Of a stretch of DNA of 29,156 nt, positions 12,823 to 16,947 are shown piece after piece. The notes beneath the pieces were generated by a model. That model was not told the origin of the DNA. It did no database searches and worked only from the letters and a program-made list of their open reading frames with translations. Origin of the DNA: Candidatus Omnitrophota bacterium (lineage in GTDB: Bacteria; Omnitrophota; Gorgyraeia; Gygaellales; Profunditerraquicolaceae); the NCBI GenBank assembly GCA_016938245.1, contig JAFGUY010000107.1, forward strand, positions 1-29,156. Reading direction: 5' to 3'. Numbering within the stretch: position 1 is the stretch's first letter; each line of letters opens with the position of its first letter. The translations under genes were made by a program, and so were the position numbers.

Positions 12823-14565
12823 TTAGGTTAGGCTATTTGACAATAAGCGGGCTTGTTTTATAAAATCACTTAACACCACCATGCCGATATTGCCCTTGCC
12901 TTTTTTTCTGACCGCTACTGACCGAGATTTTTCCTCTCTTTCTCCGACAACTAAAATATAAGGTATCTTATCCAGCTCTGCGTTACGTATCTTCTTGTCT
13001 AATGTTTCATTACGCGTATCTATTTCTACACGGAAACCCTCGTTTTCCAATATTCCCTTAACTTGATCCCCGTAGCCTACAACCGAATCTTTTATCGGAA
13101 TCACCGTCATTTGCACCGGGGCAAGCCAAAGAGGGAAATCCGCATTATAATGCTCTATTAACGCGCCGATAAAGCGCTCTATACTGCCTAACAAAACCCT
13201 GTGCAACATTATAGGTTGTTTTTCCTTACCTTCATTATCAACATAGGCAAGGCCAAACCTTTTCGGCAGGGCAAAATCGCATTGTATGGTGGCGCATTGC
13301 CATTGCCTTTTTAAAGCATCTTTAAGTTTGATATCTATTTTAGGCCCATAAAAAGCGCCGTCTCCTATATTAATATCATATTGAAGCCCTTCTTCTTTCA
13401 ACGCCTCTTCTAATGCAGAAGTTGCCTTCTGCCAGTCCTCATCAGAACCGATACGGTCTTTAGGCTTAGTGCTTAACTCTATTACCCACTCCTTGAAACC
13501 AAATGCTTTCATAGTGTCAAAGACAAAATCTATTACGCCCTTAATTTCTTCGCGCAGTTGTTCAGGAAGGCAAAATATATGGGCATCATCCTGGGTAAAT
13601 CCGCGCACGCGCAATAATCCATGCAGGACTCCGGCTTTTTCATGGCGGTAAACTGTCCCTAATTCAAAAAGCCGTATGGGCAAATCCTTGTAGCTTCTTG
13701 TCCTGGACTTATAAATTAAGATATGCCCGGGGCAATTCATCGGCTTTAAGACATATTCCGCCTCATCTACTTTAAATATATGCATATTTTCTTTGTAGTA
13801 ATCGTAATGACCGCTTGTCTTCCAAAGCTTAGAATTCATAATATGCGGGGTAATCACCATCTGATACCCGCGTTTTACATGTTCCCTCTTTTCGTAATCT
13901 TCAATAATGGTGCGAAGAACAGCTCCTTTAGGATGATAAAAAACCAGCCCTGCGCCGGCCTCTTCATGGTAAATATCAAATAACCCTAAGGCCGGGCCTA
14001 TTTTACGGTGATCGCGAAGCTTAGCCTCCTCTATATTCTTCAGATATTCCTCTAATTCTTTTTTGGTTTCAAAACAGGTGCCGTAAATCCTCTGTAGCAT
14101 TGGGTTAGTTTCAATACCATGCCAATACGCTCCGGCAACCGAGAGAAGCTTGAAGGCCTTGATCTCCCCGGTTGAGTTAATATGCGGCCCGCGGCATAAA
14201 TCTACGAAACCTTTACCCGTTCTATAAACCGAGACTTTTTCATCCGATAAAGCATTAAGCAATTCTACCTTATAATCTTCCTTAATTCCTTGGAATAATT
14301 TTATGGCCTCAGCCCTGCTTATCTCTTCCCTGATAAAAGGTTCATTTTTAGCTATAATTTCACGCATCTTTTGATCAATTTTAACCAAATCCTCGTCAGT
14401 AAAAGCATCTTTTTTACCCGCACTAAGCGCAGTCGAAGTGTCAAAATCATAATAAAACCCGTCTTCTATAGCCGGGCCGATAGCTAATTTTGCATCCGGC
14501 CATAGCTCCTTTACTGCATGAGCCATTATATGCGAACAAGAATGTCGTAAGGTATCTAGATCCAT
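12823..14565 (-). CDS. thrS: Threonine--tRNA ligase (no N-terminal TGS domain)
   Basis: LRHSCSHIMA, GPAIEDGFYYDF, DLCRGPH, RDHRKIG, KPMNCPGH, LLRVRGFTQDDAH, GAFYGPKID, MLHRVLLGSIERF. Confidence 0.97.
   Translation of the reverse strand: MDLDTLRHSCSHIMAHAVKELWPDAKLAIGPAIEDGFYYDFDTSTALSAGKKDAFTDEDLVKIDQKMREIIAKNEPFIREEISRAEAIKLFQGIKEDYKVELLNALSDEKVSVYRTGKGFVDLCRGPHINSTGEIKAFKLLSVAGAYWHGIETNPMLQRIYGTCFETKKELEEYLKNIEEAKLRDHRKIGPALGLFDIYHEEAGAGLVFYHPKGAVLRTIIEDYEKREHVKRGYQMVITPHIMNSKLWKTSGHYDYYKENMHIFKVDEAEYVLKPMNCPGHILIYKSRTRSYKDLPIRLFELGTVYRHEKAGVLHGLLRVRGFTQDDAHIFCLPEQLREEIKGVIDFVFDTMKAFGFKEWVIELSTKPKDRIGSDEDWQKATSALEEALKEEGLQYDINIGDGAFYGPKIDIKLKDALKRQWQCATIQCDFALPKRFGLAYVDNEGKEKQPIMLHRVLLGSIERFIGALIEHYNADFPLWLAPVQMTVIPIKDSVVGYGDQVKGILENEGFRVEIDTRNETLDKKIRNAELDKIPYILVVGEREEKSRSVAVRKKGKGNIGMVVLSDFIKQARLLSNSLT
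14416..14439. repeat. REP-like element inserted in frame within thrS (encodes TSTALSAG)
   Basis: Minus strand ACTTCGACTGCGCTTAGTGCGGGT with CACT/AGTG arms. It adds ~8 residues right after GFYYDFD and is related to the element at 5229-5253. Confidence 0.55.
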
Positions 14566-14579
14566 AGTTTTTCTGGTAA

Positions 14580-14633
14580 GGCACTTAGCTCGCTAAACCG
14601 CTTGTCGCGGTTTTTAACGCTCGCTTGAGTGCC
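14580..14633. repeat. Nested palindromic element upstream of thrS
   Basis: GGCACTTA-GCTCGCT-AAACCGC-TTGTC-GCGGTTT-TTAAC-GCTCGCT-TGAGTGCC: outer and inner inverted repeats plus a GCTCGCT direct repeat. Confidence 0.7.
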
Positions 14634-14666
14634 ATTAAAATTTTCCTTGTCGGAAAATTTTAATGG
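14632..14666 (-). terminator. Perfect 15-bp hairpin at the tRNA-Val 3' end (terminator or processing-stem candidate)
   Basis: CCATTAAAATTTTCC-TTGTC-GGAAAATTTTAATGG, a perfect inverted repeat starting in the tRNA 3' end. Confidence 0.5.
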
Positions 14667-14737
14667 GCCCAAGAGGACTTGAACCTCTGGCCTTTGCGAT
14701 GTCAACGCAACGCTCTAACCAACTGAGCTATGAGCCC
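14664..14737 (-). tRNA. tRNA-Val(GAC)
   Basis: GGGCTCATAGCTCAGTTGGTTAGAGCG-TTGCG-TTGACAT-CGCAA-AGGCCAGAGGTTCAAGTCCTCTTGGGCCCA. CCA is not encoded. Confidence 0.95.
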
Positions 14738-14747
14738 GATGTAATAT

Positions 14748-15521
14748 TTATGGGCAGGGAGGGAGTCGAACCCTCACGCTCTTGCGAACGGGAGATTTTA
14801 AGTCTCCATTGTCTGCCATTCCAACACCTGCCCGTTGATAAACATTGGTCGAATTCAAGAGGTCGATTGTTCTACTTTTTCTCCAACCAGCATAAGAATT
14901 AATACACTCCTCGGCTAATAAATTCTTTCTCTCCAGACCAAAGCTTCCTGGGTAGTAACACTGTTGAGCAATCTGTCTTGCTGCCATTTTGCCAAATTTT
15001 AACTCACAACAAGTTCCTTGCTTGTTTTGCTTATGTATTTTCCCTCTTGCTTTTAAAATTTCTTCTATTGCTTGCCCTAACCATTCCAAGAATTTAATGG
15101 AGACAGAGTATACCCTCAGGCTCCATTGCTCTCTTTTATTACCCGGGTGTATCCAATTACGTATGCAACCATCTCCGTCAATCAATCCTCTTAAGAAATC
15201 AGGAAAATATGCTTCGGGAATATTTAATTCCTTTAGTGTTAAAGATTTATTGGGTGTTAACCCTACAGACAAAAGAAAATCATAAAAATTTCTGTTCCCA
15301 ATTTGAATATGAAAATTTTTCTGTTTTAACGCGTTAAATTTTTCTCCAATTTTATTAGTAATGTTTAGTGTCGTTTTAATCTTAAGAAGAAATTCCCGGT
15401 CTTTAGAGGTTATGTCTATATGTCGTCCATCTGATGACAAACACCCGTCGCTTGTGATTAACCCTACTAAATACCAAAGATTCGCTCCGCTGATTTTTAA
15501 TTCTTCCCTATGCGCAGGCAT
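14748..15521 (-). mobile_element. Free-standing two-motif LAGLIDADG homing-endonuclease-like gene; ORF runs through tRNA-Leu
   Basis: Motifs YLVGLITSDGCL and DFLRGLIDGDGCI. The region is visibly AT-rich and lies between tRNA-Cys and tRNA-Leu. The last 28 codons are the tRNA-Leu gene. Confidence 0.85.
14751..14833 (-). tRNA. tRNA-Leu(TAA), intron-less
   Basis: GGGCAGGTGTTGGAATGGCAGACAAT-GGAGA-CTTAAAA-TCTCC, long variable arm, GAGGGTTCGACTCCCTC, CCTGCCCA. Confidence 0.95.
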
Positions 15522-15530
15522 TTTAATTTA

Positions 15531-15602
15531 AGGCGCGGAGCGGAATCGAACCGCTGAATAACTGTTTTGCAGACAGTTGCCTTGCCGCTTGGCTACCGCG
15601 CC
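15531..15602 (-). tRNA. tRNA-Cys(GCA)
   Basis: GGCGCGGTAGCCAAGCGGCAAGGCA-ACTGT-CTGCAAA-ACAGT-TATTCAGCGGTTCGATTCCGCTCCGCGCCT, with the U73 discriminator typical of tRNA-Cys. Confidence 0.95.
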
Positions 15603-15608
15603 AAACTT

Positions 15609-16145
15609 TTAAAGAACCTTATTGGCCTCTTTGATTATCGCCTCAACTTCCGCCAAGCAGCCAACGCCCGTATCGCCGCAAGCAAGCTTCCCCTTCTTAG
15701 GCCCGATGAACATATAGCCTTTATTTTTAAGCTTGGCAATATTCTCTTGGGTGATTTTATTTTTATACATATTCTCATTCATTGCCGGCGCAATCAAAAC
15801 AGGCGCGCTAGTTGCCGAAACTACGCAGGTCAAAAGATCGTCGCATATCCCGCTTGCAATTTTCGCAATAACATTTGCTGTAGCCGGAGCAATTAAAATT
15901 AAATCTGCCTGTTTAGCCAAAGATATATGTTCTATCTCCCAAGCCTCCGGCATATCAAATAGCCCGCGATAAACTTTATTGCCGGAAAGACTCTGGAAAA
16001 CTACCGGCTTAATCATCTCTTCGGACTCTTTAGTCTGTATTACCGTAACAGAAAAACCTTCTTCTTTAAGCCTGCGCACCAAATCACAGGCCTTATAAAT
16101 CGCGATGCTTGCCGTAACCCCTAAAATAATCTTTTTATTCTTCAA
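15609..16145 (-). CDS. coaC: Phosphopantothenoylcysteine decarboxylase (stand-alone CoaC domain)
   Basis: LGVTASIAIYKA, EHISLA..ADLILIAPATANVIAKIASGICDDLLT, PAMNENM, GKLACGDTGVGCL. It ends at 178 aa with no CoaB domain. TTG start. Confidence 0.9.
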   Translation of the reverse strand: MKNKKIILGVTASIAIYKACDLVRRLKEEGFSVTVIQTKESEEMIKPVVFQSLSGNKVYRGLFDMPEAWEIEHISLAKQADLILIAPATANVIAKIASGICDDLLTCVVSATSAPVLIAPAMNENMYKNKITQENIAKLKNKGYMFIGPKKGKLACGDTGVGCLAEVEAIIKEANKVL

Positions 16146-16149
16146 CGCC

Positions 16150-16359
16150 TTATTCTTTCTGCTTTAACTTCTTAGCTTGCACTTTCCCGGCGGCAATCTC
16201 ACGCAACGCCACAGTAGAAGGCTTAACCGCGGCATTTGCCTCTATAAGTTTAGGCTGTCCCTCGGCAATCTCCAAGGCTCTTTTTGCTGCCAGATTTACA
16301 AGTTTATAGATAGACCCTTCACTCTTTGATAAAAGCTTCTCTCTCTCGACATAACCCAT
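16150..16359 (-). CDS. rpoZ: RNA polymerase omega subunit
   Basis: SIYKLVNLAAKRALEI..KPSTVALREIAAGKV, in the gmk-rpoZ-coaBC context. Confidence 0.92.
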   Translation of the reverse strand: MGYVEREKLLSKSEGSIYKLVNLAAKRALEIAEGQPKLIEANAAVKPSTVALREIAAGKVQAKKLKQKE

Positions 16360-16386
16360 AGATTGCTCCTTACTTGTATTAAAACA

Positions 16387-16947
16387 TCATATTCTTTGCA
16401 ATATAATACCTTTCAACCTTTTGACTGCTTGTTTTAAATTAATATTACGCAGAGAATAATCATAATACGCTGCTTGCCTAAGCTCTGCTTCCACAAGCCT
16501 CACCCTACGCTTAACCTCCTCATTTTTCGTCTTAAAAGAACGCCCCTGTATCCTCTTGCGTAGCTCCTGAAGCGACGGGGGAATAACAAAAATAGTTAAC
16601 GTTTCTTTAGGGTACAGCTTTCTCACCCGCTTTGCCCCTCTAAAATCGAGGCAGAGCAGAATATTCTTGCCTTTTTTAAGCGCAGCTTCAACCAGGGCTT
16701 TCTTTGTCCCGTAATAATAACCTAAGTATTTTGTCCACTCAAGTATCTTTCCGCTTCTTTTTAAATCTGTGAACTTTTCCCCGGTTACAAAAAAATAATC
16801 TCTCCCCTCTTTTTCCCCTGTGCGCCTTGGCCGCGTGCATAAAGACACGGACTTAACAAATTTCTTCTTGATAAGCCCGTCCTTAAGGACGCGGTCGCGT
16901 AATGTAGTTTTTCCCGAGCCCGAAGGCCCGGAGAGGATAAAAATCAT
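16387..16947 (-). CDS. gmk: Guanylate kinase
   Basis: LSGPSGSGKTTL, SVSLCTRPRRTGEKEGRDYFFV, LEWTKYLGYYYGT, IFVIPPSLQELRKRI. Confidence 0.95.
   Translation of the reverse strand: MIFILSGPSGSGKTTLRDRVLKDGLIKKKFVKSVSLCTRPRRTGEKEGRDYFFVTGEKFTDLKRSGKILEWTKYLGYYYGTKKALVEAALKKGKNILLCLDFRGAKRVRKLYPKETLTIFVIPPSLQELRKRIQGRSFKTKNEEVKRRVRLVEAELRQAAYYDYSLRNINLKQAVKRLKGIILQRI

Follow-up and report, generated by a model that had tools for sequence, protein, structure and literature searches.

An open reading frame (ORF) placed between tRNA-Cys and tRNA-Leu in a 29,156-nucleotide stretch of a Candidatus Omnitrophota genome (contig JAFGUY010000107.1, assembly GCA_016938245.1; hereafter the window) is, as judged from its sequence and its predicted structure, a free-standing, single-chain, two-motif LAGLIDADG homing endonuclease gene (HEG). 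By comparative criteria (sporadic occurrence, one site, empty alleles and decay) the gene is a mobile one, and its target is likely the tRNA-Leu gene itself, into which a cassette formed by the HEG and a tRNA-Leu of its own would probably be recombined. The ORF crossing a whole tRNA gene, the most striking feature at first, proved to be nothing unusual: its stop was lost in a frame which chance had left open. The proposal of the sequence-only reading, that of a selfish LAGLIDADG gene which has no intron and lies within a tRNA operon, is supported, while its views on the read-through and on the target had to be changed.

The locus and the encoded protein

The features of the locus are collected in Table 1. 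The gene order flavoprotein - Cys - [endonuclease] - Leu - Val - thrS is conserved across the family. The sequence-only reading had described an ORF starting 9 nt after tRNA-Cys, with no stop ahead of tRNA-Leu and with the entire 83-nt tRNA used as its last 28 codons, followed by TAA; this was borne out, as was the statement that both tRNAs are intact and intron-free (ARAGORN, Rfam). In fact, the Rfam intron models gave zero matches against positions 14000-16500, where the flanking tRNAs are uninterrupted, and neither a group I intron nor any other RNA family was detected around the ORF. Directly 3' of tRNA-Val, at window positions 14633-14663 on the minus strand, there is a perfect 13-bp AT-rich hairpin of the AAAATTTTCC-loop-GGAAAATTTT type, and similar hairpins were observed 3' of tRNA-Cys within the Cys-Leu spacers of the relatives L052, L007, L046, L051, L055 and L011. 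The hairpin next to tRNA-Val could be a processing signal, a termination signal or a small mobile repeat.

Table 1. Features of the endonuclease locus, in window coordinates.
Feature	Position	Strand	Remarks
Flavoprotein (coaBC-type) gene	15609..16145	-	Upstream flank; ends 6 nt before tRNA-Cys
tRNA-Cys(GCA)	15531..15602	-	Intact; 66 bits (ARAGORN, Rfam)
AT-rich 9-nt spacer TAAATTAAA, tRNA-Cys to ATG	15522..15530	-	Shine-Dalgarno motif absent
LAGLIDADG ORF, 257 aa, ATG start	14748..15521	-	ORF call and Pfam
Conserved endonuclease core, aa 1-218, ending with GWRKSRT	14868..15521	-	Family C-terminal motif; confident two-domain monomer model
LAGLIDADG motif 1, YLVGLITSDG	15444..15473	-	Acidic D25 invariant in family
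LAGLIDADG motif 2, FLRGLIDGDG	15168..15197	-	D115 and D117 invariant in family
Codon 140, Val	15102..15104	-	Gly in all 119 other homologues
39-aa C-terminal extension: 11 aa of former 3' spacer and 28 tRNA-Leu codons	14751..14867	-	Absent from 89% of homologues; pLDDT ~50
tRNA-Leu(TAA), 83 nt, discriminator A, no encoded CCA	14751..14833	-	Intact; 51 bits (ARAGORN, Rfam)
TAA stop of the extended ORF, first 3 bases of the tRNA-Leu 3' trailer	14748..14750	-	
tRNA-Val(GAC), 13 nt after tRNA-Leu	14664..14737	-	Intact; 73 bits (ARAGORN, Rfam)
thrS, downstream flank	12823..14565	-	

The ORF matches Pfam LAGLIDADG_3 (PF14528, E 6e-12, above the cut-off) and also LAGLIDADG_1. A database search returned 620 homologues; the best 120 of the 620 are 56-76% identical to the window protein and, where the source gives a name, are designated as LAGLIDADG endonucleases of Candidatus Omnitrophota. 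All 58 sequences compared share the motif aspartates D25, D115 and D117, and 84 alignment columns are at least 93% conserved. The AlphaFold (AF2) model, with a pLDDT of 82.6, is confident over residues 11-215 and shows a two-domain LAGLIDADG topology, with the order of secondary-structure elements expected for two alpha-beta-beta-alpha-beta-beta-alpha domains arranged as a pseudo-dimer. Foldseek assigned a probability of 1.00 to I-Tsp061I, I-DmoI and I-AniI, the best fold matches being I-Tsp061I (2dch, E 5e-11) and I-DmoI. Residues 220-257, which include the 28 codons encoded by the tRNA, have a pLDDT of around 50 and are predicted to be disordered.

Distribution, mobility and probable target of the gene

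Close orthologues were found in 24 of the 401 Omnitrophota genomes sampled (~6% of species), representing more than 10 families; the three sampled congeners of the window's species have none. Within another genus, g4, five of the 31 species have the HEG. The Cys-Leu spacers of HEG-less genomes measure 8-30 nt (11, 25 and 30 nt in the three congeners), so that the comparison of empty and occupied spacers proposed in the sequence-only reading revealed empty alleles in relatives, all three sampled congeners included, and a gene that is not fixed. Several stages of decay were also found: a frameshifted gene in G097, an N-terminal remnant in G427, a C-terminal remnant in G410 and a 13-codon remnant in G373. 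A whole-genome family search found no second tRNA-Leu-linked member elsewhere in the window's genome, and the long (47-360 nt) spacers of genomes with native alleles held no significant HEG remnants. The HEG tree is star-like, with long tips and weak support; its use as proof of recent horizontal transfer was consequently dropped, and no recent transfer is documented. In the trees of the thrS flank, a host marker which adjoins the locus itself, HEG-bearing species are polyphyletic, with five state changes in g4 and g1 and twelve among 57 species of the family; with the N-terminal part of thrS, the window groups with its HEG-less congeners (SH-aLRT 100).

Regarding the position of the gene, each of the 24 orthologues is followed immediately by tRNA-Leu(TAA), whereas its distance from tRNA-Cys ranges from 7 to 342 nt. 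Moreover, the 21 paralogues from the same search (30-44% identical) are, without exception, co-oriented with a tRNA-Leu gene (TAG, CAG, CAA, GAG or TAA) at most 56 nt away, being placed upstream of Leu(TAG) and Leu(CAG), downstream of Leu(CAA) and on either side of Leu(GAG). The paralogues of L115, L116 and L118 start 17 nt after tRNA-Leu(GAG) and overlap with their 3' ends the 5' part of tRNA-Glu(CTC); they are thereby squeezed between two tRNAs, as is the gene of the window. In three genomes, 5' stumps of the native tRNA-Leu are found directly at the start of the HEG (tRNA positions 1-24 in G264, 1-20 in G269 and 1-25 in G244), and a complete, different tRNA-Leu lies 3' of it; in G264 and G269, the ATG of the HEG is that of the tRNA D loop. 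In the metagenomic relative L148, a 3' fragment of a donor-type tRNA-Cys precedes the HEG, downstream of the resident tRNA-Cys. No convincing 3' stumps of a native tRNA-Leu were found downstream of the cassette, except for an 18-nt piece in G345. It was also considered whether the first codons of the HEG (K-E-L-K, AGAATTAAAA) derive from the anticodon arm of the tRNA (AGACTTAAAA); the match, which is short, AT-rich and offset by one codon, was treated as chance.

The alleles of tRNA-Leu point in the same direction. In genus g4, one nearly invariant tRNA-Leu(TAA) allele is shared by 24 of the 26 HEG-less species, whereas the alleles of the HEG-bearing species are strongly different in 5/5 cases, with compensatory changes in the D and anticodon stems, in the variable arm and in acceptor pair 6. 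The tRNA-Cys of these HEG-bearing species is native or within two bases of native in three of the four where it was recovered, and in G283 and G398 the native tRNA-Val is found 8 nt past tRNA-Leu. As for the window, its tRNA-Leu is 78-80% identical to those of congeners and 98% identical to those of endonuclease-linked or formerly occupied loci in other genera. Its tRNA-Cys (86-88% to congeners, 93-97% to endonuclease-bearing or formerly occupied loci in other genera) looks to have been imported too, while tRNA-Val, with the congeners' allele over the shared core and 95-97% identity over the called genes, has apparently not been replaced.

Within the family, 37 species are HEG-less with a native allele, 12 have the HEG and a non-native allele, seven are HEG-less with a non-native allele and one has the HEG and a native allele, a two-by-two count which overstates the independence of the species. 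The phylogeny-controlled sign test could rely on only four well-supported independent pairs, of which three to four were concordant and none discordant (p 0.125-0.25), and is underpowered. An exception is G205, which bears the HEG together with a native-like D arm, and of seven HEG-less f1 genomes with non-native alleles only two hold HEG remnants and one holds other cargo. The histories of the HEG and of tRNA-Leu also disagree at some points: between G283 and the window the tRNA is 98% identical and the HEG 57-58%. In g4, the tRNA-Leu(CAA) replicate is only partly clean, many HEG-less genomes sharing HEG-linked alleles.

Other cargo was observed at the same site and near it. In L034 (G417, 713-1497) and L038 (G338, 657-1477), the Cys-Leu(TAA) spacer holds a small ORF and a DUF6036/DUF2204 nucleotidyltransferase gene, and the adjoining tRNA-Leu is a non-native allele of the HEG type; the Cys-Leu site may be a general landing pad, or the nucleotidyltransferase cargo may have displaced an HEG. 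In L149 (2268-3618), one of two otherwise identical metagenomic contigs with the closest homologue, a large serine recombinase gene takes the place of thrS beyond tRNA-Val, which suggests an integrated element at tRNA-Val.

Because of the siting of orthologues and paralogues, the allele contrast in g4, the native 5' stumps and the polyphyly of HEG-bearing species, the target is likely to be the tRNA-Leu gene itself and probably not the empty Cys-Leu spacer, which the sequence-only reading had named as a possible target. A spacer target, in which the insertion would split the recognition site and the differences in tRNA-Leu would be lineage history, is in our opinion quite improbable. Many occupied loci do have 7-17 nt between tRNA-Cys and the HEG and 5-11 nt between the HEG and tRNA-Leu, a sum which resembles the 9-30 nt of empty spacers; nevertheless, empty spacers are conserved neither in sequence nor in length, paralogues adjoin tRNA-Leu genes with other neighbours and sometimes lie downstream of the tRNA, stumps of the native tRNA-Leu stand upstream of the HEG, and it is tRNA-Leu, and mostly not the flanking tRNA-Cys and tRNA-Val, that has been replaced within one genus. 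Even less credit is given to a domesticated LAGLIDADG protein with a host role tied to tRNA-Leu (a DNA/RNA-binding regulator or a maturase-like factor), inherited vertically and often lost. The HEG has diverged (55-67% identity) to a degree comparable with the flanking host proteins, its tree follows taxonomy in part, the conserved columns indicate strong purifying selection, and the fold is common to WhiA and maturases. However, a gene present in so few species and in no congener, for which pseudogenes and deletion remnants are known, fits such a role poorly, as do the invariance of both catalytic aspartates and the replacement of the linked tRNA allele, with stumps left behind.

Read-through of tRNA-Leu and expression

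The sequence-only reading had taken the missing stop as a property of the element, and the survey of the family did not bear this out. Among 118 homologues with the C-terminal GWxKSKT motif, 105 (89%) stop 3-7 aa past the conserved C-terminus, before the tRNA, 13 extend at least 18 aa into the tRNA and only four (3%) cross it completely. At the level of the 24 orthologous loci in species-representative genomes, the window included, the stop lies 0-21 nt ahead of tRNA-Leu in 18, read-through is complete in three (the window, G264 and G320), and the remaining three have a stop inside the tRNA or a one-base overlap. The sister copy of the window's gene, in G221, stops 6 nt before the tRNA. When the three frames of each of the 24 tRNA-Leu alleles linked to the endonuclease were examined, no stop interrupted the tRNA in 34 of 72 (47%), nor in two of the three of the window's own allele; a lost stop would therefore yield a full crossing, with a stop in the AT-rich trailer, about half the time. 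Judged by these frames, complete read-through is not beyond chance, while the gene and its position are.

At alignment columns with a conservation of 93% or more, substitutions are about twice as numerous in copies overlapping the tRNA as in the others (1.9 vs 0.98; p 0.003 in a one-sided Mann-Whitney test, kinship ignored), and the overlapping copies thus show signs of relaxed constraint. The window's copy has the change G140V, in a position occupied by Gly in 119/119 others, a possible sign of decay. We read the read-through of the window as a lineage-specific stop loss, either neutral or an early step of decay, and not as a designed feature. Three side observations concern neighbouring cases. 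The HEG stop codon abuts tRNA-Leu with zero spacer in L016 (G392), and in L023 (G087) its last base is the first base of tRNA-Leu; in these two genomes, by analogy with mitochondrial tRNA punctuation, RNase P cleavage would leave an incomplete stop. In L037 (G373, 669-1487 of the endonuclease-oriented reverse-complement copy), a 30%-identical paralogue upstream of tRNA-Cys has a frame which crosses the whole of tRNA-Cys and stops 8 nt before tRNA-Leu(TAA); it is a second, independent ORF crossing an entire tRNA gene.

With spacers of 9 nt on the 5' side and 0 nt on the 3' side, the HEG is packed too tightly for a promoter or terminator of its own, and it is co-oriented with the tRNA in 45 of the 45 loci examined. 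In the consensus scan, promoter-like sites were not above those of shuffled sequences, and no Shine-Dalgarno motif was found ahead of the ATG of the HEG. The absence of this motif was rejected as a special trait, about half of the window's 25 long ORFs having none. The genome contains RNase P RNA (143 bits) and tmRNA (168 bits), and no tRNA-Leu(UAA) other than the overlapped one was found in the assembly, which implies that this tRNA must be processed correctly. In metatranscriptome contigs only the tRNA parts of relatives are covered, the locus being present only in the probable source DNA run. On this arrangement, it can reasonably be supposed that the HEG is co-transcribed with the tRNA operon and freed by tRNA processing.

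Two further explanations of the read-through have to be weighed here. According to one of them, the missing stop would be functional, RNase P cleavage producing a non-stop mRNA whose tagging by tmRNA would keep the nuclease low. The genome does have both RNAs, the stops of other members also lie just 0-21 nt from the RNase P site, and overlap with the tRNA recurs in separate lineages; nevertheless, complete crossing (4/118) and even any overlap (13/118) are infrequent, the sister copy in G221 stops short of the tRNA, overlapping copies have more changes at conserved sites, and a crossing is expected by chance once the stop is lost, for which reasons we find this explanation quite improbable. 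The other one, an assembly or sequencing error that deleted the stop codon, is the least probable of all. Depth is only ~9x in the single run that holds the sequence, but a 3332-nt contig of the Logan assembly of the probable source run is identical to the window over 14701-15700; an assembler error is thus unlikely, since this second assembly, though built from the same reads, is identical across the entire gene. In addition, the same frame is read through in three further metagenomic homologues, which come from other samples.

Proposed mechanism and comparison with known systems

Taking these results together, we consider it probable that the cassette, composed of the HEG and its own tRNA-Leu, has been recombined into a broken native tRNA-Leu gene, and that the read-through of the window is a stop loss in an open frame. 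The enzyme would cut the tRNA-Leu gene of an HEG-less genome, probably in or near the D arm (tRNA positions ~10-30), and repair from an HEG-bearing copy would insert the HEG along with a complete tRNA-Leu resistant to cleavage, with the result that the essential tRNA would never be lost. The HEG would be expressed as part of the tRNA operon, from whose transcript tRNA processing would free it. The stop that normally lies 0-21 nt ahead of the tRNA would have been lost in the lineage of the window, the frame continuing across the tRNA as far as the first stop of the trailer; RNase P cleavage would then yield transcripts devoid of a stop, and those left uncut would encode a protein lengthened by a disordered 39-aa tail. 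A more far-reaching version, unlikely in our view, is a break-and-replace drive on essential tRNA-Leu genes with its dosage set by tRNA processing. Stops lie 0-21 nt from the RNase P cut in nearly all members and beyond it in ~11%; processed transcripts, truncated at or near the stop, would be directed to ribosome rescue, the nuclease would come only from the few ribosomes acting before processing, and the window would be the extreme of a continuum.

Most known free-standing homing endonucleases come from phages and organelles, and the literature search yielded no paper that links LAGLIDADG genes of Omnitrophota with tRNA-Leu. What is described here appears to be a LAGLIDADG lineage which maintains itself in bacterial chromosomes by settling at tRNA-Leu genes, with a sublineage for each isoacceptor, and whose cassette apparently overwrites an essential tRNA gene with the copy that it carries. 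If cleavage were confirmed, the case would show how an RNA gene that the cell cannot do without can be invaded by a nuclease even though no intron is involved; odd switches of tRNA-Leu alleles within genera would be explained, with a caveat for tRNA-based typing, and natural enzymes with long, tRNA-gene-specific sites would be at hand.

The best matches of the window protein, both in sequence and in fold, are I-Tsp061I (PDB 2dch) and I-DmoI, which are likewise single-chain, two-domain proteins with both acidic motif residues. However, identity to them is only 15-21%, and their genes reside within introns spliced from archaeal rRNA, whereas the gene of the window has neither intron nor intein. 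As to the arrangement of the locus, tRNA punctuation of mitochondrial transcripts, reportedly described by Ojala et al. in 1981, provides a coding region bounded on both sides by tRNAs with almost no spacer and a stop that abuts the next tRNA, as here; the present case differs in that it concerns a bacterial chromosome and has no known stop-completing mechanism. Genomic islands that carry an integrase insert into tRNA genes and restore them. Like the cassette, they bring a replacement for the disrupted tRNA sequence and leave a tRNA fragment at one border, but their insertion relies on att sites and a tyrosine or serine recombinase and duplicates the 3' part of the tRNA, while here a LAGLIDADG nuclease is the sole cargo and the stump is a 5' one. 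The tRNA-Leu(UAA) gene of cyanobacteria and plastids harbours a group I intron, that is, a mobile-type element at the same tRNA gene as here, although the tRNA of the window is uninterrupted and gave no group I match. This intron has been reviewed (PMC3984707).

The closest functional analogue is SegB of phage T4, a free-standing GIY-YIG endonuclease encoded in a tRNA cluster, which recognises the T-psi-C part of a tRNA gene and whose intronless homing carries neighbouring tRNA genes along (PMC2330249). Both are free-standing HEGs in a tRNA gene cluster with a target in a tRNA gene, a target which for the window is inferred from sequence. In having no intron or intein around it, the gene of the window resembles free-standing HEGs of the SegB/SegF/SegG type. 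SegB is a phage enzyme of the GIY-YIG type, whereas the genes considered here encode LAGLIDADG enzymes in bacterial chromosomes, with each sublineage tied to the gene of one tRNA-Leu isoacceptor. Furthermore, unlike SegB, a cassette of the window's type seems to overwrite its own target tRNA gene, of which a 5' stump can be left behind.
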